Notes: generated by a model from the sequence alone, not told the origin. Numbered from the stretch's first letter, positions 2,931-13,090 are shown. The stretch is DNA of 28,888 nucleotides from an uncultured Candidatus Saccharibacteria bacterium (GCA_964573565.1 CAZNJV010000001.1:1-28888), one strand, 5' to 3'. A program made the numbers and translations.

Positions 2931-3802
2931 TGAAATAGCTTCTCGTAATTCTCATCTGTAATTTTCTCCAACTCCTCCACGGATACCCCCTTTATATCTG
3001 CAGCTACCTCCATAATTTCTCTAACATCACTTGGTTGGGCAAACTTCTCCTTAATATTTTTATTCTTTCTCACAGACTGTGGAGGTAAAAATGGCCCATC
3101 TGTCTCAAACAATATTCTCTCTACTGGAACCTGTTTTAATATCTCTCTTACATTCTCACCACTCTTGTAGGTAATGATGGCATTGAAACCAACATAGAAA
3201 CCTAGATCCAAGATATCCTGAAGATACTTAATATCACCAGTATAGCTATGGAAACTACCACGAAGCTTCCCCTTTCCCTCTTGTGCTACCAATCTCAATG
3301 CATCACTTACAGATTCACTCTCTCCCTGCGTATCTCTGGCGTGTATACTCATTGGAAGGTTGTATTTAGTAGCAAGTGCAATATGTTTGCAAAATGAAAG
3401 CTTTTGGATCTCCTTAAGCTGAGATTTAATCTCTTTTGAAATATTTTGAGGGATATTGAATTGATAGTAATCCAGACCGGTCTCGCCTACTGCTTTAATT
3501 CTTTTCCTATTTCTCTCAAACAATTGCTCCCATTCCTGTAGATATGCCCGTGATATCTCATAGATATTCTCCTTAATTCCTTTTTGTAGTGTGATCTCTT
3601 CAAATATTGTTGGATGTAACCCTACTGCGACTTCAATTATATCTGGGTATCTCTCTGCAAGTGCCAATGTGATATCAATATCTACGTTATCTGTAGTCTG
3701 TGAAAGTATATGTTTTCCTCCCATCTTTCTGAAGTTTGAAATAACTTCATCAAGGTTTGTATCTAATGGACTGAGGTTCAAATGTATATGTGAGTCGTGC
3801 AT
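2927..3802 (-). CDS. tatD: TatD-family metal-dependent nuclease
   Basis: DSHIH, GLHP, GETGLDYY, IHARD, HSYTG and ETDGP motifs. Confidence 0.93.
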   Translation of the reverse strand: MHDSHIHLNLSPLDTNLDEVISNFRKMGGKHILSQTTDNVDIDITLALAERYPDIIEVAVGLHPTIFEEITLQKGIKENIYEISRAYLQEWEQLFERNRKRIKAVGETGLDYYQFNIPQNISKEIKSQLKEIQKLSFCKHIALATKYNLPMSIHARDTQGESESVSDALRLVAQEGKGKLRGSFHSYTGDIKYLQDILDLGFYVGFNAIITYKSGENVREILKQVPVERILFETDGPFLPPQSVRKNKNIKEKFAQPSDVREIMEVAADIKGVSVEELEKITDENYEKLFH

Positions 3803-3894
3803 AGTGGAATTTTAGCACAATTTGCAAAAGAGAATACTACAAGCCCTCTCATCTGTAACATTAGTCTTGTAATGTGGTAGAATATGATCCGATT

Positions 3895-4605
3895 ATGGGC
3901 AAGATCAAACAGAGAAATTGGTTGATAATTATCACCATTTTCTTGGTAATTGTATCTGGGGCAGGACTTTTTGTCTCAATACAACAAAAATTATCATTCA
4001 ACTCTTGTGCGTATGGAGAGAATGTATACAGAAGTGGTGAGCAGGTTCCAGAATTTAATGGAGAGCAGGAATGTACATGTAATTCTGATGGCTCCATAAA
4101 ATGTGGTACAGAATCCGATGGTGTCGTATATACTGGCTATTCTTCTTCCAATCTTAAGTTCTCCTACAGCTATATTAATCTCCTTGAGTCTAATACCATT
4201 CTAAATTCTGATGTAACACCTTTGGATGCTTCTTACAGTAATGGTATCTTAAAGGTATCTTTCGAACGAGACGTGTTATGCTCTTCAGATGAGATTGCAC
4301 CTGCACAATCAGGTTTTTACCAACTATCCTCTGATGCTTTGCGTCTTACAATAATGACAAATGTAGATACTTCAAAATATACCGCACCGTGCAAGATCGC
4401 CAACAGCTTTGAAATCTCTGACCCCAATATCTCTTTCTCTGATGATTTCCAGATATATTATGAATCTGAATCTGGAGAGTTCTTAAGCTTGGGTGCATGC
4501 GTTTACAAGGGTACTCTACACGGGGACCAAGATGTATTTAAAGACAAAGATACTACCTCTGTCTGCCTGTGCAATACAGGTACTGTTACCTGTAAGGATT
4601 TATAG
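3895..4605 (+). CDS. Membrane-anchored exported protein with two Cys-rich (Fn1/VWC-like) modules flanking a predicted beta-rich domain
   Basis: The ORF opens at GTG 3874; ATG 3895 is preferred because TG-G-TAGAAT lies just upstream. N-terminal TM. C-x21-C-x-C-x7-C and C-x21-C-x-C-x6-C modules. Confidence 0.75.
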   Translation: MGKIKQRNWLIIITIFLVIVSGAGLFVSIQQKLSFNSCAYGENVYRSGEQVPEFNGEQECTCNSDGSIKCGTESDGVVYTGYSSSNLKFSYSYINLLESNTILNSDVTPLDASYSNGILKVSFERDVLCSSDEIAPAQSGFYQLSSDALRLTIMTNVDTSKYTAPCKIANSFEISDPNISFSDDFQIYYESESGEFLSLGACVYKGTLHGDQDVFKDKDTTSVCLCNTGTVTCKDL

Positions 4606-5631
4606 TAATCCTAGATAGATTCCTAAGATACAGAAGACGAATGTAAATAGCCAGAATCTCATTGTTACTTTGTACTGTGGCCAACCTTTTGCTTGGAAGT
4701 GGTGATGGATTGGAGCTATGATGAAAACTCTTTTCTTAAGAAATCTCATACTTAATATCTGTATCGCACTAGACCCCATGATGATCCATGTCATTGCAGA
4801 CATTACGAGATATGGGATTAAGTTGTCTGTTACTATTCCAATGAAGAAAATTGCAAAACCAAGTGGCATTGCACCAGGGCCTCCATTCCAGAATCTTGCA
4901 GGAGGGATATTGAAATACAGGTCGATGATTTGTACCCCAAGTATTATGCACAGTATAGGGATAAATTGAGTTTGCCCTTGTATGAGAAGAAGTAGGATCA
5001 TTGAAAAATTTATAATTGCGAAGATACCCATCATTAATCCATCTAATCCATCGGTTAATTCTGCGGAATAGATAGCTAGCTGACTAATGAAACCAAGGAT
5101 TATTAAAACTAATGGTGTAATAGATATTGTTAAAATATTGAAGAAGGACAGAGATGTAAATTCCCCTGTATTGTAGAGCAAGAACATTATTCCAATATTC
5201 ATTAATGTTGCAAAGCCCAATTTCCCTAATCTCCATTCAAATCTCTCTTGGAAGGCTTTCATCTTCTCATTATTTTTAAAACCATTTGTGAAGATTACAA
5301 CATCTATGAATCCCCAGAGTCCATACAGTACAAATCCTAGCAAGAATACTTTGAGTACTGGTGTAAGGGGAACTGTTAATGCAATTATGATGGGCACTAC
5401 AATCCAGATTAAGATACCTCCCATATTAGGAGTCCCATTTGTTTCTGTTACTCTCATTATCCTTAAGAATAGGGAGTTATCTCCTTTCTCATCAGCACCG
5501 ATCTTGGATTTCTTAAGCCCACTGACTTGGTTAAATTTATACAGAATACTTATCATTATTGGGGCAAATACTGCGGAACAAACTACAGCAAGAAAGAGGT
5601 AGTTTAGAGAGGTTCTGAGAGTATCTATCAT
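4600..5631 (-). CDS. mraY: MraY-family phospho-MurNAc-pentapeptide transferase homologue with degenerate active site
   Basis: GTPNMGG, LTDGLDGL, FNxxPA and APIHHHF motifs, about 10 TM, located after ftsI. GxxDD is GFIDV and FMGDxG is WNGGPG. Confidence 0.85.
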   Translation of the reverse strand: MIDTLRTSLNYLFLAVVCSAVFAPIMISILYKFNQVSGLKKSKIGADEKGDNSLFLRIMRVTETNGTPNMGGILIWIVVPIIIALTVPLTPVLKVFLLGFVLYGLWGFIDVVIFTNGFKNNEKMKAFQERFEWRLGKLGFATLMNIGIMFLLYNTGEFTSLSFFNILTISITPLVLIILGFISQLAIYSAELTDGLDGLMMGIFAIINFSMILLLLIQGQTQFIPILCIILGVQIIDLYFNIPPARFWNGGPGAMPLGFAIFFIGIVTDNLIPYLVMSAMTWIIMGSSAIQILSMRFLKKRVFIIAPIHHHFQAKGWPQYKVTMRFWLFTFVFCILGIYLGLL

Positions 5632-5663
5632 TTTAGTACTTATTAATTAAGTTATATATTATC

Positions 5664-7493
5664 TCAATTTGCTTTCTGTATTTCCAGATCATCCTTGATA
5701 GCTAGGAAAATGCTTCTCCATACAGGTACGGATGTGTACGATGCATAAGTACTAACCTGTGGCTCTTCAAGCTTTACTAGCATTACGAATTTGGGGTCAT
5801 CGTATGGAGCGTAACCTATTACGGTAGCATTACTAATATCATCCTCATAACCGGTTCCATCTGTCTTCGCAATCTGTGCAGTTCCTGTTTTTGCGGCAAT
5901 TTTGTAACTCTTTAGATCAGATGCCAATCCTCCGAGTGCGTTGTCTATGACACCTTGTGCAAGGTCTTTGCTTATGATATCTGCAGTCGTTTTTGATACT
6001 GGTGTTGATATTGTTTGTGGTTGTATAGTTATTGTCTCATTGTTATCGGCTATTTGTGAGATGATGTATGGTCTCATTCTAACTCCACCATTAGCTAATG
6101 TGCTAAATGCGGAGATTACTTGAAGAGAAGTCGCGGAGATTCCTTGCCCATATGAAGCTGTAATTTGATCTAGCTTTGTCCATTGCTCTAGTGGCTTCAT
6201 GTAGCTAGTACTTTCATCCTGCAAGCCAATACCAATGAATTGGCCTATACCAAATGCCTCTAAATATGAGTAGAACTCTGGAAGGGCGACAGATAGTCCT
6301 GCTTTTGCGGCGCATGGGTTATTTGATTTGGCAAATATTCCTGAAATATCTATCAATCCACTAGGTCTTTTATTCCATGTGTAGATATATCGTCCTTTGA
6401 GGTCTTCGTATCCTGTTTCTGCGTAAAGATCGAGTTTACCTGTACTATCGTTACAAGTATAGTCTTCCTTGATAGCACCTGAATCTAGAGCTATGGCTAA
6501 AGTGATTGGTTTTTGTACAGATCCATACTCATATACATCTGCTACTGCCCTATTTTTCAATATCCATGGCTCAGAGATTCTCCAGTACTCTGATGGATTG
6601 TATGTAGGATAGTTGGCCATCGCTAAAATCGCTCCTGTATGTGGATCCATGATTATGACTGAACCGCTCTTTGATCTCGTATCCTTAACCCCCTGTTCTA
6701 GCTGCTCTTCCACCTTTGCTTGCAAATTAGGATCTATTGTCAATGTAAAATCTTTTCCCTCTCTTGGCAGTATAGGGTCGTATTCGGATGTAAGGATAAC
6801 ATTTCCTGCAGAATCCTTTTCTTCGTATGTATATCCTTCACTTCCAGTTAAATCTCCAAAATAGTAACCTTGGATACCATACTGACCAAGATCATCACCC
6901 TGTGCATCCTGCCCTATGAAGCCTAAAACATGGGCTGCTAAGGTTCCATTTGGATACAATCTCTGTTCTTTGTTCTCAAAATACATACCAAAGCCCGCAG
7001 TGCCATCTCCAAATATCTCTTCTTGTGCTAATGCATTCTTTATATCCGTAGATACTCCTTTTGCTAGATTAACATATACAAAATCGTCTGTTATCTTTTC
7101 TTCTATGGTTGATTTCTCTACCCCTAGGAGACTGGCTACTTCGGTGATGAACTTATCCTTTTGTGAAAAGAATTTTTCTCTCTCAACTGTATCTGTGCTT
7201 AAGGTTGCATATATATCCCAAACGGGTTGATCAACTGCAAGTATTGTCCCATCTGTAGCAGTAATCTTACCTCTAGTAGCGGTTTGTACACCACTAGATT
7301 GGTATTGCTCGTTCGCCATGGCCTTTAATTCGTCAGAATCAACAATTTGCCATCGGAAAATCTGCAATACAACGAGGAAAGCTACAACAGAAATGATATA
7401 TCCAACCAAGTAGATATTGTTGTGTGGTTTTGAACTGCCACTCTTACTTCGATGTCCTTTTTGAGAAGTGTAGAGATGGTTTAGCTTAGCCAT
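5664..7493 (-). CDS. ftsI: Class B penicillin-binding protein FtsI/PBP3
   Basis: N-terminal TM, RGKITATDG, RLYPNG, SVQK (SxxK), SNN (SxN), KTGTAQ. dcw position after ftsL. Confidence 0.9.
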   Translation of the reverse strand: MAKLNHLYTSQKGHRSKSGSSKPHNNIYLVGYIISVVAFLVVLQIFRWQIVDSDELKAMANEQYQSSGVQTATRGKITATDGTILAVDQPVWDIYATLSTDTVEREKFFSQKDKFITEVASLLGVEKSTIEEKITDDFVYVNLAKGVSTDIKNALAQEEIFGDGTAGFGMYFENKEQRLYPNGTLAAHVLGFIGQDAQGDDLGQYGIQGYYFGDLTGSEGYTYEEKDSAGNVILTSEYDPILPREGKDFTLTIDPNLQAKVEEQLEQGVKDTRSKSGSVIIMDPHTGAILAMANYPTYNPSEYWRISEPWILKNRAVADVYEYGSVQKPITLAIALDSGAIKEDYTCNDSTGKLDLYAETGYEDLKGRYIYTWNKRPSGLIDISGIFAKSNNPCAAKAGLSVALPEFYSYLEAFGIGQFIGIGLQDESTSYMKPLEQWTKLDQITASYGQGISATSLQVISAFSTLANGGVRMRPYIISQIADNNETITIQPQTISTPVSKTTADIISKDLAQGVIDNALGGLASDLKSYKIAAKTGTAQIAKTDGTGYEDDISNATVIGYAPYDDPKFVMLVKLEEPQVSTYASYTSVPVWRSIFLAIKDDLEIQKAN

Positions 7494-7494
7494 T

Positions 7495-7797
7495 TTATTT
7501 TTCTGCCAAGAGTGCAGATTGCTCTAAATATATGATAGATTTACCACTTTGGGATCTAATATCAAGCTGTTTGTCGGCTAATTTTTTAATTACTGTTATG
7601 GAGCTTGTTTTTGCAACTTGCTCTTCCATGAGTCTATTTTCTTCGACTAAGAAATTTTTCTCTTTGTTTAAACTTTGTAATTCTGTTCCTAAGGGATTTA
7701 ACACTGCGTTAATTACTAACTGAGAAAGCACAAATGCTACCATGGAGAATCCAAAGATCATGACTGGGAGGTTTTTTCTGGTTTTGTAGGTTTTCAT
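7495..7797 (-). CDS. ftsL: FtsL-like cell division protein
   Basis: 100 aa with a short basic N-terminus, one TM and a coiled coil. Syntenic between rsmH and ftsI. Confidence 0.7.
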   Translation of the reverse strand: MKTYKTRKNLPVMIFGFSMVAFVLSQLVINAVLNPLGTELQSLNKEKNFLVEENRLMEEQVAKTSSITVIKKLADKQLDIRSQSGKSIIYLEQSALLAEK

Positions 7798-7798
7798 G

Positions 7799-7807
7799 TT
7801 GGGCAGT
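7799..7807 (-). promoter_or_regulatory. ACTGCCCAA start-proximal motif (ftsL)
   Basis: 1 nt upstream of ATG 7797; TAAAAT lies 4 nt upstream of the motif. Confidence 0.55.
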
Positions 7808-7814
7808 AGTTATT

Positions 7815-8693
7815 TTATTTTTTAATCAAACATCTCAACTTGGCGGAAGCGGAGCGAGAATTTTGCTCTAACTCTATGTCGGTTGGGGCAATTGGACTTT
7901 TGAAGAGCAATTCTCCTTCCCCGCTTCTAGCCTTGTCGCTAAAGTAATTCTTAACAATTCGATCTTCTAAAGAATGGAAGGTTATCACTGATAGTCTTCC
8001 ATCGGATTGTAAGAGCTCAAAAGATTTATCTAATGCCTCTTTGAGGCTTTCTAATTCATCATTTACCACGATCCGCAGAGCCTGAAAGACCCTGCGGGAA
8101 GGGTTCTTAAAAGAATTATTCGCCGGCACGACTTTATAGATAAGTCTTGTAAGATCTCCAACTGTTTTAATATTGCTAAGCTCTTTTTTAATTGCTTTGG
8201 CAATTTTCATTGAATATCTTTCTTCTCCGTATTCCAAGAATAGTCTTGCTAACTGTCTCTCATCTAATACTGTGAGAATATCTAGTGCTGTGACTCCTAA
8301 GTTAGTATTCATTCTCATATCTAGTGGTTCTTGATCTTCTAGGTAACTGAAACCTCTGTTGTGAGATTCTTCTAGCTGTCTAGATGAGAGTCCTAGATCC
8401 ATAAGGATACCGTTTGGAGTTTTACCAATCTCTGCTACGAGTTTGTCGATGTCTCTAAAGTTGGATTGCTTGAGGATCCAATTCTCTTGGAAATTGTAAT
8501 AGCTTTTGACAAATTCAATAGCGAAACTGTCTTGGTCGATACTTAGTAGTAATCCATCAGGTGAGAGCTGCTTTAGAATTGATTGACTGTGACCACCATC
8601 TCCTAACGTGCAATCGATATAGAAACCATGTGGATCTATATTTAATGAATCTATTGATTCGTTTAAGAGTACTGGTACGTGTATTTTATCCAT
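7815..8693 (-). CDS. rsmH: 16S rRNA (cytosine1402-N4)-methyltransferase RsmH (MraW)
   Basis: HVPVLL, DCTLGDGGHS, DLGLSSRQL, PLDMRM, FQALRIVVNDEL, ITFHSLEDRIVK. Confidence 0.97.
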   Translation of the reverse strand: MDKIHVPVLLNESIDSLNIDPHGFYIDCTLGDGGHSQSILKQLSPDGLLLSIDQDSFAIEFVKSYYNFQENWILKQSNFRDIDKLVAEIGKTPNGILMDLGLSSRQLEESHNRGFSYLEDQEPLDMRMNTNLGVTALDILTVLDERQLARLFLEYGEERYSMKIAKAIKKELSNIKTVGDLTRLIYKVVPANNSFKNPSRRVFQALRIVVNDELESLKEALDKSFELLQSDGRLSVITFHSLEDRIVKNYFSDKARSGEGELLFKSPIAPTDIELEQNSRSASAKLRCLIKK

Positions 8694-9129
8694 TGTTCTT
8701 TTCTGTCATTTTAGTCAATTCTTGTGCGATATCTTCTCCATGTTGTTTTAGGTATTGGAGTCTCTCTTCCCATTTGGATTTCTCCCATATTTCGATCCAA
8801 TTTACTAAACCGATGAAAACGATATCTTCTTTGAGTTGTGCATGATCAAACAATGCTTGTGGTATTATGAATCTTCCTTGCTTGTCTGTTTGAACTTCTG
8901 TTGCACTCCCTACCAGGAATCTACTTGTATCACGGATGTTTTTATTTATAAAAGAGCCATCTATTACCTCTTTGGCTATTTTTTGCCACATATCCTGATT
9001 TACTAGGATAAGTGCATCTTCGTAGCCTCTGGTGAGTATTATGTTCTCACCTAGTTCATTTCTGAACTTTTTGGGAAGTGATGTTCTTTTCTTATTGCTA
9101 AGCTTTCCGTGGTACTCTCCTATGAGCAT
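8686..9129 (-). CDS. mraZ: Division/cell wall cluster transcriptional repressor MraZ
   Basis: MLIGEY...K.R..LPKKFR, TRGYEDAL, DKQGRFIIP, IEIW. First gene of the dcw operon. Confidence 0.96.
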   Translation of the reverse strand: MLIGEYHGKLSNKKRTSLPKKFRNELGENIILTRGYEDALILVNQDMWQKIAKEVIDGSFINKNIRDTSRFLVGSATEVQTDKQGRFIIPQALFDHAQLKEDIVFIGLVNWIEIWEKSKWEERLQYLKQHGEDIAQELTKMTEKNNG

Positions 9130-9135
9130 ATTTGG

Positions 9136-9195
9136 ATTTTACCACTTCTCACCACTTCATGCCACTAATTTAACATTATCTAAAATATGCGTCAA
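9136..9195 (-). promoter_or_regulatory. mraZ promoter(s) with three AGTGG MraZ-type boxes
   Basis: TTGACG (9195-9190), 17 nt, TAAATT (9172-9167). AGTGG at 9166-9162, 9156-9152 and 9146-9142 with 10-nt period. A second TG-G-TAAAAT (9141-9136) lies 6 nt from ATG. Confidence 0.8.
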
Positions 9196-9366
9196 GAAGA
9201 TTTAGTTATAGGATTGGATATAATATTCTAGGATATACAGATATATCGCTACTGAAATATATCTACCCTGTTGTGGGTGATATTGTGAACATGAACCGAT
9301 AGCAGAATTTATTGAAATATATATTTAAAGAAGTTAGTATAATTAAATAACTTGAGCCAAGTTTCT

Positions 9367-10737
9367 ATGAAAATCTATTTAAAAGATATAAAAGAGAGAT
9401 TCCCAGAGTTTGAGATTAGAAATTATGATGAGAATGCGTTTTTCACAGCCTTTAACCATGATTCGAGAACTATAAAGGATGGGGAGATCTTTATCCCTAT
9501 TGTTGGAGAAAAATTTGATGGCCATGATTTTATACTTCAGGCATTAAATGATGGTGCTGATATGGCCATATGTGAGGCGAAGAAATCTTTGTTAGTTAAA
9601 GATGCAATTAAGCCTGTGATTTTGGTTGATAGTGTTCGTGAGGGTCTACAGAAGATAATGTCTTTGTACACCTCCCATATCGATGCCAAGATTATGGGTA
9701 TAACAGGGAGTGCGGGTAAAACGACTACAAGAAAGATCCTTTCGACAATCTTGAGTTGCAATGGTTCTGTTTTGTCTGCAGAAGGTTCAAACATCAATAC
9801 TGTTTGGGGCAATGCGGTTTTACTTAGCAAATATACAGATGAAAAATATATAGTTTTGGAATGTGGTATGGATCATCCTGGTGAAATTGCTTGGCACATG
9901 AATTCAGAAGATCCTGATTTGGGGATATTGTTAAATGTAGGTTATGTACATGCCGAGGCTTTGGGTTCGATAGAGGGAGTGTATGAGGAGAAAAAGAACA
10001 TGGCCGATTATCTGGATCGTATGGGGAGACCTCTAATCCTGAATATAGATGATGAGAGGTTGCAAAGGATTGCCACTATATATAAATCGAAGCTTGTCAC
10101 CTATGGCTATAATGCGAATGCAGATTTTAGAATAGAATCATCTGTTTTGAGTCAGGATGGAATAGATTTTAAATTTGTGTATAAGGGAAATTCCTTTACT
10201 GGTCATTTGAAGGCCTATGGTGAGAAGCTTGTATATAATGTTGTAGCGGCCATAGCAGCAGCAGTGGAACTGGGAGTAAACATTGAAGATGCATTAGATG
10301 CACTAAAAGATTTCGAACCAGAAAGTGGTCGTTTTGAGATAATTCCACTTAGAAGTGGTAGCTTTATCATCAATGACGCATATAACGCGAATCCGGTTTC
10401 TATGGAAATGTCGCTTAATACATTCAACAAGTTGTATTCTAAGGAAGAATATAAGCGAATAGTAATATTGGGAGACATGAAAGAACTTGGAGATGTGTCT
10501 TCTAAACAGCATAAAGAGCTTGGAGAATTAGTAAACAAGATGGAATTTGATGATGTGTATTTCCTAGGAGAGTATTTTAAAGATTTCGGTATTGGCGAAG
10601 AGATCAGGTCGATTCCCGAAGCAGTAAGCATCATTAAGGAGAATTTAGAGAATGAGAAAAGAAAACTAGCTATTCTATGTAAGGGTAGTCACAGCACGGG
10701 TATATTTGAAATCCCAGATCTTGTGAAGAGTTTATAA
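9367..10737 (+). CDS. murF: MurF-type Mur ligase (UDP-MurNAc-tripeptide:D-Ala-D-Ala ligase family)
   Basis: DSR, GEKFDGHDF, GITGSAGKTTT, LECGMDHPGEI, NDAYNANPVSM, ILGDMKELG. The ORF opens at TTG 9352; ATG 9367 is preferred. Confidence 0.88.
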   Translation: MKIYLKDIKERFPEFEIRNYDENAFFTAFNHDSRTIKDGEIFIPIVGEKFDGHDFILQALNDGADMAICEAKKSLLVKDAIKPVILVDSVREGLQKIMSLYTSHIDAKIMGITGSAGKTTTRKILSTILSCNGSVLSAEGSNINTVWGNAVLLSKYTDEKYIVLECGMDHPGEIAWHMNSEDPDLGILLNVGYVHAEALGSIEGVYEEKKNMADYLDRMGRPLILNIDDERLQRIATIYKSKLVTYGYNANADFRIESSVLSQDGIDFKFVYKGNSFTGHLKAYGEKLVYNVVAAIAAAVELGVNIEDALDALKDFEPESGRFEIIPLRSGSFIINDAYNANPVSMEMSLNTFNKLYSKEEYKRIVILGDMKELGDVSSKQHKELGELVNKMEFDDVYFLGEYFKDFGIGEEIRSIPEAVSIIKENLENEKRKLAILCKGSHSTGIFEIPDLVKSL

Positions 10738-11898
10738 CTCAATTTCTTTTAATATTGTCTTAACAGCATCTGTTCTAAATATCTTTTCGATCTCCCTTTT
10801 ATCTACATCTTTTGTTTTCTGTAGGAATTTCTCTAACCTTAGCAACAAACAACTTGATGTGAGTTCTCCCTCCTGAATTATCTCTGCTAAACCTAAGTTA
10901 ACTAATACCGCTGCATTTTTGTATTGCTCATTATGTGTGACCCAAGGAATAGGTATAAATATGGAAGGTATCTGTAACACTCCCATCTCGTATACCGTAT
11001 TGGCTCCTGCTCTACCAACATATAGATCGATATTGTGTAAAAGATAGCCTAAATCCTTAGCTTGAATAAATGTAACAGGTAAGAATCTTGATCGAAGGTC
11101 TTTCTCTAAGTTCTCTTTGTACCCAATTAGAATTTTGTAATCATTGAAAACCTTGTTATCCCCTGTTTGAAGAATGATTTGGTATTTTTGTAACAACATC
11201 TTAAGAGATTCTTTTACAGTTTCGTTTATTAGGTGTGAACCTAGCCCTCCACCAGATATGTAGATAATGGGATATCTATCTCTGTTGCTTACCATCCCCT
11301 TTATACTCTCCGCGAAGTTCCCTTGTGCCTTGGTTTCAAATATCTCTGGTCTGACAAGATTTCCTGTTAATAGGGCTTTACCCTTCGGGAAATATTTAAA
11401 AGAAGAAGGGAAGGATATGAAAATTTTCTCTGCTAACTTCCCTACTATCTTGTTTGTTAAGCCAACTGTTGCAGTTTGCTCATGAAGATATATCTTAGAT
11501 TTAAAAAGTTTGGCAATCAAACAAACACTTACAGTTACATAACCACCCGTTGATATTATTATTTCAGGTTTGAATTTCTTAACAATTTTGTAGGAATCCA
11601 TAAGCCCGAGAATTGTTCTAAAAAGGAGTTTGATGGTATTGAAACTAAGAGATCGTTGTAGTTTTCCAGCACGTATGAATTTACATTCGAAGCCCTTTCC
11701 TTTCATCAACTTTTGCTCGAGAGAGTTTCCAGGTTTCTCACCTTCCATACCAAGATCACCACCGATATAGAGAAAATGGCTTTTATCTAACACATATCTC
11801 TCTTCAAGGCTTGATATGACAGAAAGTGCTGCAGAGATATGGCCTCCAGATCCACCTCCTGTTACGATTATTTTTTTACTTAACTGCTTTTTGCTCAT
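10732..11898 (-). CDS. murG: MurG GlcNAc transferase
   Basis: GGGSGGH, STGGYV, HEQ, GNLVR, GRAGANTVYE, EQYKNA. Downstream of ftsW. Confidence 0.9.
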   Translation of the reverse strand: MSKKQLSKKIIVTGGGSGGHISAALSVISSLEERYVLDKSHFLYIGGDLGMEGEKPGNSLEQKLMKGKGFECKFIRAGKLQRSLSFNTIKLLFRTILGLMDSYKIVKKFKPEIIISTGGYVTVSVCLIAKLFKSKIYLHEQTATVGLTNKIVGKLAEKIFISFPSSFKYFPKGKALLTGNLVRPEIFETKAQGNFAESIKGMVSNRDRYPIIYISGGGLGSHLINETVKESLKMLLQKYQIILQTGDNKVFNDYKILIGYKENLEKDLRSRFLPVTFIQAKDLGYLLHNIDLYVGRAGANTVYEMGVLQIPSIFIPIPWVTHNEQYKNAAVLVNLGLAEIIQEGELTSSCLLLRLEKFLQKTKDVDKREIEKIFRTDAVKTILKEIEL

Positions 11899-13090
11899 TC
11901 TGAGTGTTTGAGTATTTACTGATATTTAGTAGTATACCAATTCCTATGAGGGATACGATAGTGCTAGATCCACCATAGCTAACTAGAGGTATAGGCATTC
12001 CAGTGAGAGGAATGATACCAACATTTGCCCCTATATTTAAAAGTGTCTGAATAACAAGCCATACTGTAATGCCTGCTGCCAACAGTTTCCCTTGTTTATC
12101 CGGTGCTCCAAGTGCAACTTTGAGTCCTCTCCAAAGGAACCCTATCCATGCAATTATGATTAATGTACCTCCCAAGAATCCAAGCTCTTCAAGAATTACG
12201 GCAAATATTGAGTCTGTGAATGCAGTATTCTCTACCAGATATCCAAATCGTTGTCTTGATTGTCCAAATCCTGTACCAAAGAATCCTCCTGATCCTATTC
12301 CTATGAGAATTTGTTGCATCTGATACCCAGAGCCTTGTGGATCCGCCACTTTGCCGGTAAATAGCAAGCTTAAGAAGGTTGTGACCCTCTGCAATCTGTA
12401 TGGCTCTAGTATTGCCGCTATACCAGCTACTGGTATAAGTAATGAAAGTACGGAAAAAGAAGCGAGGGTATGGATTCTGTCCTCTCCAGCCATTAAGAAC
12501 ATGATGAAGCATGTAATACAAACGACCATTGTTGTACCGAGGTCTGGTTCTAGAAGTATAAGTAAGGCGACTACACCGAGAATGGCTATGAATCCCAAGA
12601 GATTCTTTATGAACCCTTCCCTAATTGCAGATTTGAAATCTTTGTATTTGTAATCTCGCTTTGCTAACCATTGTGCAAGGTACATGATCAATGTGAGTTT
12701 GGCAAACTCGGCGGGTTGTATTTTAGGCAATGACCCTAGAGAGAACCATCTTTTAGAACCGTTAGTTGCTTCTCCTAATATTAATACTGCAGCTAGGAGT
12801 AATACTGTGATTACCAGTGCTGGGAATGCTAATTTCAGTATCTTTCTGTAATCCCAGAAATATACTATTACTGCAGGAACTGCCCCTACTAGTAACCAAA
12901 CAATTTGGGATTTAAGGAAGTAGAATTGATCATTGAAGACTGTATTTGCTTGGTAAACACTGGCATCAAAGATCATAATAGCCCCGAATATCGCCATTAA
13001 TACGCAGAATATTAAAAGGAAAGAATCTGGTTTGTGTCCGGAGATTACTTTCTTGAGTTTTCTTTTTGGGGCATGGTTTTGATTGGACAT
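11876..13090 (-). CDS. ftsW: SEDS-family peptidoglycan glycosyltransferase FtsW
   Basis: KRWF...IQPAEFAKL, EPDLGT, GYQ..Q...GSGG, TDSIFAVILEELG (catalytic Asp), PLVSYGGSS. Upstream of murG. Confidence 0.93.
   Translation of the reverse strand: MSNQNHAPKRKLKKVISGHKPDSFLLIFCVLMAIFGAIMIFDASVYQANTVFNDQFYFLKSQIVWLLVGAVPAVIVYFWDYRKILKLAFPALVITVLLLAAVLILGEATNGSKRWFSLGSLPKIQPAEFAKLTLIMYLAQWLAKRDYKYKDFKSAIREGFIKNLLGFIAILGVVALLILLEPDLGTTMVVCITCFIMFLMAGEDRIHTLASFSVLSLLIPVAGIAAILEPYRLQRVTTFLSLLFTGKVADPQGSGYQMQQILIGIGSGGFFGTGFGQSRQRFGYLVENTAFTDSIFAVILEELGFLGGTLIIIAWIGFLWRGLKVALGAPDKQGKLLAAGITVWLVIQTLLNIGANVGIIPLTGMPIPLVSYGGSSTIVSLIGIGILLNISKYSNTQNEQKAVK

Follow-up and report, generated by a model that had tools for sequence, protein, structure and literature searches.

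A rearranged dcw cluster conserved across Dojkabacteria

We analysed a 28,888-nucleotide stretch of DNA (GCA_964573565.1, CAZNJV010000001.1:1-28888; hereafter, the window), deposited as an uncultured Candidatus Saccharibacteria bacterium, that carries a rearranged division and cell wall (dcw) gene cluster. Our main subject is the MraY-family phospho-sugar transferase encoded in this cluster, the active site of which is remodelled; we refer to it as the variant MraY. The dcw genes of the window were called with Pfam and NCBIfam profiles and by tblastn using fifteen Escherichia coli dcw proteins (locus L085; L numbers designate loci throughout).

In order of transcription, the minus strand carries mraZ (8686..9129), encoding a dcw-cluster transcriptional regulator that scores above its family cutoff (TIGR00242, 115 bits); rsmH, also called mraW (7815..8693), for a 16S rRNA m4C1402 methyltransferase, likewise above cutoff (TIGR00006, 298 bits); ftsL (7495..7797), for a small bitopic division protein with a weak TIGR02209 match, whose position is kept in all related loci; ftsI (5664..7493), for a class B penicillin-binding protein with transpeptidase function (PF00905, 222 bits; PF03717, 65 bits); and the variant mraY (4600..5631; PF00953, 34.5 bits). 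Divergent from mraZ, murF (9367..10737, plus strand) encodes the UDP-MurNAc-tripeptide--D-Ala-D-Ala ligase (TIGR01143, 315 bits against a cutoff of 288.6). Its longest open reading frame (ORF) begins at a TTG at 9352, and gene callers on identical contigs use the ATG at 9367, which gives 456 amino acids. Beyond it, again on the minus strand, lie murG (10732..11898), for the GT28-family GlcNAc transferase that converts lipid I to lipid II (matching PF03033 and PF04101), and ftsW (11876..13090), for the SEDS peptidoglycan polymerase (PF01098, 319 bits). The gene content and order reported in the initial annotation, including the inverted murF and the lack of murE and murF between ftsI and mraY, were thus confirmed by the profiles and by tblastn. 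The same searches of the window detected no murA, murB, murC, murD, murE, ddl, ftsQ, ftsA or ftsZ and no Mur ligase other than MurF, also in agreement with that annotation.

Compared with the E. coli dcw cluster (mraZ-rsmH-ftsL-ftsI-murE-murF-mraY-murD-ftsW-murG-murC-ddlB-ftsQAZ), the locus has the same gene families, the mraZ-rsmH-ftsL-ftsI core, the adjacent ftsW and murG genes, and repeats resembling MraZ boxes 5' of mraZ. In contrast, ftsW-murG is placed 5' of mraZ rather than 3' of mraY, mraY directly follows ftsI, and murE, murD, murC, ddl and ftsQAZ are missing. The collinear order from mraZ to ftsZ, with its murE-murF-mraY-murD and murC-ddl-ftsQAZ segments, is not preserved; what persists, in rearranged order, is the mraZ-rsmH-ftsL-ftsI-mraY core and the ftsW-murG pair.

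The repeats consist of three AGTGG copies with 10-nucleotide spacing (9142..9166, minus strand), located ~15-35 nucleotides 5' of mraZ in the intergenic region common to mraZ and the divergent murF. A threefold AGTGG pattern was present 5' of mraZ in 41 related loci (for example, L006 4691-4715 and L062 5961-5995), including one locus from an outgroup within the Candidate Phyla Radiation (CPR). By analogy with known MraZ boxes, these repeats look like a putative MraZ operator.

Wherever the source of the best relatives of the window proteins is named, it is Candidatus Dojkabacteria or candidate division WS6. Judged by these relatives, the window belongs to a genome of Candidatus Dojkabacteria, also known as WS6, a lineage of class rank within the CPR/Patescibacteria. 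The G+C content of the window is ~37%, and several metagenome assemblies from wastewater and other sources contain the region in identical form. A search for DNA extending past the far end of the window yielded only short contigs.

We next consider the clade-wide organization of the locus, obtained by scanning one genome per GTDB species with the window MraY as query and inspecting the best 80 matches, with 56 further matches beyond them. The scan yielded ~55 Dojkabacteria loci with 55-97% MraY identity, after which identity dropped sharply to 32% or less in other CPR bacteria. All ~55 loci have the order ftsW-murG-[slot]-mraZ-rsmH-ftsL-ftsI-mraY, followed by a convergent gene for a small membrane protein and then tatD, and only the slot between murG and mraZ differs. 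The locus is therefore a rearranged dcw derivative that is conserved as such across Dojkabacteria.

Depending on the species, the slot, which has no counterpart in the E. coli cluster, contains murA, murB, ddl, murF or ligX, the last encoding a membrane-anchored Mur-like ligase described below. In a census of 40 loci, murA plus murF was the most frequent content (14 loci), followed by murB plus murA (10) and by murF only, the window type (5). The combination murB, murA and murF was found in four loci and murA alone in another four; two loci carried ddl, ligX and an alpha/beta hydrolase gene, with or without murB-murA, and one was left unclassified (L110, with a slot of the L008 type containing an alpha/beta hydrolase gene, ligX, ddl and murA). 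The closest species (L006, MraY 97% identical) has murA in place of the window's murF, and another relative, L105, has both. Since all slot gene copies are intact and the murF-only state arose several times, relocation fits better than decay. The initial annotation had described a split and reduced locus; given that slot content differs among relatives, this appearance corresponds to one permutation of a mobile slot and is no evidence of loss, and reduction is not borne out. Basal Dojkabacteria additionally carry murE, an ATE_C/Fem-like gene and murC, which stand beside murB, murA and mraZ in L057 and L108 and beside ddl in L107. In L057, murE and murC lie no more than 8 kb from the variant mraY.

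The active site of MraY is remodelled

Three residue numberings are needed here: N192 and D267 of E. coli MraY correspond to N190 and D265 of Aquifex aeolicus MraY and to E191 and G251 of the window protein. Alignments were made with HMMER to the E. coli and Clostridium bolteae MraY proteins and with MAFFT on 78 sequences, and the two agreed.

The initial annotation had noted changes in conserved motifs of MraY. These are real and much stronger than it described. Relative to E. coli, D116 is replaced by Val, N192 by Glu and D267 by Gly, followed by Pro; further changes are K68 to Thr, T73 to Asn, F253 to Asp and M265 to Asn. In the window protein, the DD pair thus becomes D110-V111, E191 occupies the Asn position, D237 is a new Asp, and W248-N249-G250-G251-P252 replaces F-M-G-D-V, while K137, D194, D197, N241 and H309-311 are kept. 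The changes extend to every Dojkabacteria MraY, in which GF-x-DV replaces GF-x-DD, Y-x-x-E-LTDGLDGL replaces N-x-x-N-LTDGLDGL, W-N-G-G-P-G-A replaces F-M-G-D-V-G-S, and the residue corresponding to E. coli F253 is Asp. The combination DV / E / D / GGPGAMP is common to all ~55 of them. By comparison, all 22 outgroup CPR MraY proteins retain DD and an acidic residue (D/E) at 267.

In A. aeolicus MraY, D117, D118 and D265 are critical, and D265 binds Mg (PMC6606608). Only the first residue of this DDD motif is found in Dojkabacteria (D110 in the window), the other two being Val and Gly throughout the clade. In Bacillus subtilis MraY, the residues D98, D99, K116, N171, D174, D231, H289 and H290 are catalytically important (PMC5039524); five of these eight are kept in the window protein (D110, K137, D194, H309 and H310) and three are altered (D99 to V111, N171 to E191 and D231 to G251). 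The variant therefore differs from canonical MraY in lacking D116 and the Mg-binding D267, in carrying Glu where A. aeolicus has N190 and a newly acquired Asp at E. coli position 253, and in its altered K68 and T73.

The remaining features are those of MraY. Along with the first Asp of the DD pair, the variant has the counterparts of Lys133, the D-G-L-D-G-L loop, Asn257, the aromatic residue at 264 and the HHH loop, and its gene occupies the same position in the dcw cluster. The uridine pocket (G194-L195-D196, N255 and F262) and Lys133 are represented by D194-G-L-D197-G-L, N241, W248 and K137, all of them invariant or nearly so. The MraY-specific loop E motif PxHHHxE/QxxG is present as APIHHHFQAKGW, in the same style as in other CPR MraY proteins. 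The variant scores 112 bits against the TIGR00445 equivalog cutoff of 192; this shortfall is not decisive, as some canonical CPR MraY proteins (for example, L066 with 134 bits) also miss the cutoff. We found no description of this MraY variant in the searchable literature.

The remodelled site is conserved and covaries

The variant MraY is the most conserved cluster protein in the clade, with a median identity of 70% to the window protein. The medians of the seven remaining cluster proteins lie between 53% (MurF) and 69% (MraZ), and that of TatD is 57%. Its non-synonymous divergence (dN) from L006 is 0.023, the lowest of nine genes, with a dN/dS of ~0.01 at saturated synonymous divergence (dS). 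The highest clade identity and the lowest dN indicate that the variant MraY is under purifying selection and is not drifting. The most invariant part of the protein is the active-site region itself, comprising DGLDGL, FNIPPARFWNGGPGAMP and APIHHHFQ. Median scores against the E. coli proteins, comparing Dojkabacteria with other CPR bacteria, were 89 versus 133 bits for MraY, 170 versus 177 for FtsW and 104 versus 118 for MurG. This MraY-specific loss of similarity to E. coli, combined with conservation within the clade, indicates an abrupt change on the stem of the group, after which the protein was frozen.

Covariation was analysed in 118 full-length relatives, including E. coli and the window, drawn from 1.84 billion representative proteins. 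Position 192 (E. coli numbering) is acidic in 11 of the 118, each of which has Gly, Ala, Ser or Thr at 267. Among the remaining 107 sequences, one has a gap at 267, and the other 106 have D/E (103) or Asn (3) there. Within the Glu-192 class, the DD motif reads DD, DG, EE or DV. Across the 118 representatives, D253 was found only together with V116. An intermediate MraY (DG / E / Y / A), which shares 35% identity with the window protein, is encoded in a complete 889-kb genome labelled Dojkabacteria, in the same mraZ-rsmH-ftsL-ftsI-mraY order. As far as these sequences indicate, a two-step history is likely, in which the carboxylate would have moved from 267 to 192 first and from 116 to 253 later.

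The variant has a predicted MraY fold

An AlphaFold2 model of the variant MraY (predicted local distance difference test score 69, predicted template modelling (TM) score 0.76) shows the PNPT ten-helix fold. Its best 22 PDB matches are all MraY (TM scores 0.63-0.79), followed by DPAGT1, and the TM scores to the MraY structures 4J72, 5CKR, 5JNQ and 8G01 are 0.70-0.77. According to this model, the fold is that of MraY.

The human paralogue DPAGT1/GPT (6FM9, 6BW5) offers a useful comparison. It coordinates Mg through Asn185 and Asp252 (PMC6218659), which are equivalent to E191 and G251 of the window protein. Asp116, the second Asp of its DD pair, serves only to N-cap transmembrane helix (TMH) 8 and to stabilise Asp252. 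Activity in DD mutants does not fall below 10%, and the Asp252Asn enzyme is 5-fold more active (PMC6218659). DPAGT1 is thus a precedent for moving or dropping carboxylates, its DD being structural and the loss of charge at the Asp being tolerated (PMC6218659). In contrast to the variant MraY, DPAGT1 uses UDP-GlcNAc and dolichyl phosphate, has no HHH loop, and matches the model with TM scores of 0.58-0.69. In MraY, N190 and D265 touch the same inhibitor amino group (PMC6606608) and are therefore spatial neighbours. Together with the roles of the DPAGT1 residues, this proximity suggests that the loss of D267 and of D116, which would cap its helix, the Pro at the start of TMH8 and the gain of Glu could form one coherent structural package.

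The partner enzymes are canonical or vary independently of MraY

FtsI keeps the SVQK, SNN and KTGT motifs expected of a SEDS-associated class B penicillin-binding protein, and FtsW keeps its catalytic Asp in FTDSIF; the alignments bear out the initial annotation on both proteins. That annotation had also proposed changes in conserved substrate-contact motifs of MurF and MurG, and a drift of these two enzymes correlated with that of MraY. No such change was found in MurF. This protein has three Mur-ligase domains and all its motifs (TGSAGKTT with the P-loop, ECGMDH, NVGYVHAE, GRFE, NDAYNANP and DMKELG, the last two corresponding to NDxYNANP and GDMxELG), scores above the TIGR01143 cutoff, and matches PDB MurF with E ~1e-43.

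MurG has the N- and C-terminal GT28 domains, the G-loop with its His (GGGSGGH), the C-terminal RxGxxTxxE motif and Q..NA (NEQ..NA). Its TIGR01133 score of 213 bits, against a cutoff of 250, is typical of divergent CPR proteins. The HEQT and GGG (GGGLGS) motifs singled out earlier are present; they are not unusual, since both sites also vary in other CPR bacteria, of which 18 were compared. The fourth position of HEQN is Asp in the MurG of all 18 outgroup CPR bacteria sampled (HESD/HQQD), and GGS and GGG alternate between Dojkabacteria species, GGG occurring in other CPR bacteria as well. After this comparison, we rejected the MurG motifs and the supposed MurF changes as signals of an altered substrate. 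With MurF canonical, the MurG changes uncorrelated with MraY, and MraY highly conserved, the idea of correlated drift in the three enzymes does not hold.

A proposed active MraY with a relocated metal site

The reading we favour, and hold to be reasonably probable from sequence comparison, the fold model and analogy with characterised enzymes, is that the window encodes an active MraY with a relocated metal site in an otherwise ordinary, rearranged dcw cluster. The products of the locus most likely make up a functional lipid II pathway. MurF would complete UDP-MurNAc-pentapeptide, the variant MraY would move phospho-MurNAc-pentapeptide onto the polyprenyl phosphate carrier, MurG would add GlcNAc, FtsW would polymerise the product and FtsI would cross-link it, with MraZ probably controlling the operon through the three AGTGG boxes. 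Further precursor genes, among them murA, murB and ddl, persist in the lineage and are presumably elsewhere in this genome, the slot acting as a site where such genes move in and out.

We hypothesize that the Mg-binding carboxylate has shifted from the loop before TMH8, where E. coli D267 became Gly-Pro, to TMH5, where Asn became Glu (E191), and that the second Asp of the DD pair, now Val, is functionally replaced by the new Asp at the end of TMH7 (D237). E191 and D237 would between them take over the metal-binding and structural roles. The lipid-phosphate-activating D110, the essential K137, the uridine pocket (D194-G-L-D197, N241 and the aromatic W248) and the HHH loop are all kept. We infer that the variant is active on canonical substrates. 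The canonical MurF, MurG, FtsW and FtsI, the murA, murB and ddl genes of the slot, and the murE and murC of L057 argue for a normal UDP-MurNAc-peptide substrate.

Several observations weigh against this model. Mutations equivalent to D116 or D267 abolish the activity of B. subtilis, E. coli and A. aeolicus MraY (PMC5039524, PMC6606608). The Asn185Asp form of DPAGT1 has no activity (PMC6218659), which shows that this position does not automatically tolerate an acidic residue. The 11 covarying sequences probably belong to one clade, and the covariation may therefore represent few independent events. Confidence in the structural model is low for precisely the loops of the active site (residues 160-196 and 242-250), and the model is of use at the fold level. 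Concerning precursor supply, murA of the window's own species was not found, the closest MurA proteins (96%, 90% and 85% identical to L006 MurA) all residing in slots of other species; and no murC, murD or murE gene was found closer than 10 kb to the cluster in the ~55 crown-group genomes.

This last result would also be expected if crown Dojkabacteria had lost murC, murD and murE and used salvaged host material or a different nucleotide-linked precursor, the MraY pocket having been remodelled to fit; one example of salvage would be an Mpl-like ligation of recycled tripeptide onto their own UDP-MurNAc. Consistent with such a change, two of the four residues of the uridine-adjacent pocket are altered (A. 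aeolicus T75 to Asn and N190 to Glu; pocket from PMC6606608), in addition to the Mg site, and passages in reviews citing Castelle et al. 2018 describe WS6 peptidoglycan synthesis as incomplete (PMC10031880, PMC9698310). Near-complete crown contigs (760, 749, 734 and 725 kb) were also absent from the best 120 matches to the L057 MurE, for which the floor was 45% identity; however, crown and basal MurA share only ~40% identity, and at that level a crown MurE would lie under the floor, which makes the search uninformative. Because L057 has murE and murC as well as the variant MraY, the remodelling did not depend on their loss. Moreover, the clade has intact, canonical versions of MurF, Ddl, MurA and MurB, the HHH loop and the uridine pocket are kept, and neither MurG nor MurF shows a correlated change. 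We consequently regard a salvaged or altered precursor as unlikely: from the initial annotation, which had proposed it, the non-canonical MraY active site stands, whereas the correlated drift does not and the reduction is not demonstrated. Rather improbable, in our estimate, is the stricter form of this explanation, in which crown Dojkabacteria (~0.72-0.76 Mb) truly lost murC, murD and murE, kept murA, murB, ddl, murF, the variant mraY, murG, ftsW and ftsI, and use a scavenged or non-standard stem peptide to which the variant is adapted as the first natural MraY without DDD. If crown genomes do lack murC, murD and murE yet have murA, murB, ddl and murF, Mpl-dependent murein peptide recycling and the reduced pathways of symbionts would provide a model; no Mpl-like gene was seen in this analysis.

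Alternatively, the variant could be a catalytically dead or regulatory divisome scaffold, with a canonical MraY elsewhere acting as the real transferase. Two of the three DDD residues are indeed missing, and the basal genome CP129478.1 (L108) has a canonical-type MraY paralogue (DD, NAVN and MGD) away from ftsI, which makes a second MraY possible in the window's genome. That paralogue (region 3421-9851) carries HLH in place of HHH and contains an insert of 35 residues, though, and may itself be a specialised copy. A scaffold is also not expected to have the active site as its most invariant part, nor to show new invariant carboxylates exactly where the old ones vanished. The best 80 scan matches (56 further lie beyond them) include no second MraY-like crown locus, a weak point in the same direction. 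We consider a scaffold role very unlikely. It is also conceivable, and compatible with a relocated metal site, that the selective cause of the remodelling was escape from inhibitors that bind the Mg site and the uridine-adjacent pocket (tunicamycin- and mureidomycin-type nucleoside antibiotics, phage lysis proteins), with the substrate unchanged. D265, N190 and T75, exactly the altered residues, contact mureidomycin, tunicamycin and 5-aminoribosyl inhibitors (PMC6606608). Nevertheless, the main inhibitor anchors, D193 and the uridine pocket, are kept, and the proposal is purely inferential; we judge it highly improbable.

A relocated metal site would matter because MraY is an essential enzyme and antibiotic target whose three aspartates are treated as indispensable, and an entire bacterial class has, and strongly conserves, an MraY in which two of the three are missing. 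The reappearance of an acidic residue at the Mg-binding site of the human paralogue bears on metal binding and substrate activation in the PNPT family, and an enzyme with a relocated site should respond differently to inhibitors docking on the Mg site. Annotation by hidden Markov model thresholds may in addition under-call peptidoglycan genes of Dojkabacteria, as the variant MraY (TIGR00445) and MurG (TIGR01133) are both below their cutoffs; this could contribute to published claims that WS6 lacks the pathway.

Neighbouring genes and related loci

The Mur-ligase-like protein LigX (~470 amino acids) has several transmembrane segments in place of the N-terminal UDP-binding domain. Its gene was located in L008 (4091-5521, minus strand), L009 (4110-5534, minus), L107 (6727-8130, minus), L057 (2-1207, minus) and L110 (10001-11425); it is always followed by an alpha/beta hydrolase gene and frequently adjoins ddl. 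The best NCBIfam match is MurF, at 127-142 bits, far under the cutoff, and the substrate may be a membrane-bound rather than a nucleotide-bound precursor. A metagenome scan with ligX returned four loci, in which no murE, murC or other added Mur ligase gene was found beside it. In basal Dojkabacteria, the gene between murE and murC (L057 3377-4123, L107 11284-12021, L108 11276-11965) encodes an ATE_C domain (arginyl-tRNA-protein-transferase C-terminal, Fem/GNAT-like), and its product may be a tRNA-dependent enzyme that modifies the stem peptide. A class A penicillin-binding protein, with transglycosylase and transpeptidase domains, is encoded near the mraZ operon of another basal locus (L114 977-3616, minus strand), and none is present in the window. 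The MraY paralogue of L108 is translationally coupled to a 739-amino-acid ATP-grasp protein and flanked by FemAB, a DegT aminotransferase and a hydrolase, a neighbourhood that may represent a second lipid-linked glycopeptide pathway.

Among the species-representative metagenome-assembled genomes with a Dojkabacteria-type cluster (L006-L060), about half are titled "uncultured Candidatus Saccharibacteria bacterium", and others bear the titles Starkeya (one), Microgenomates (one) and Nomurabacteria (one); these look like mislabelled submissions. The assembly WOZL01 contains two different copies of the cluster (L018 and L047), which suggests a mixed bin.

Within the window, the segment comprising rsmH and mraZ (7815-9129) has a dS of ~0.3-0.5 relative to L006 and L045, compared with ~1.3-2.3 or saturation in the flanking genes. 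This could reflect recent interspecies recombination of the segment or constraint on synonymous sites. The other ORFs of the window are housekeeping genes (truB, tatD, cmk, pyk, def, bipA, and genes for an ABC transporter and LiaF-like proteins). Finally, a gene convergent with the variant mraY (3874..4605, plus strand), the stop codon of which overlaps that of mraY, lies beside it in nearly all crown-group loci. Its 243-amino-acid product has no significant Pfam match, carries an N-terminal membrane anchor and a predicted extracytoplasmic domain with paired cysteines, and evolves very fast, with a median identity of 33%.

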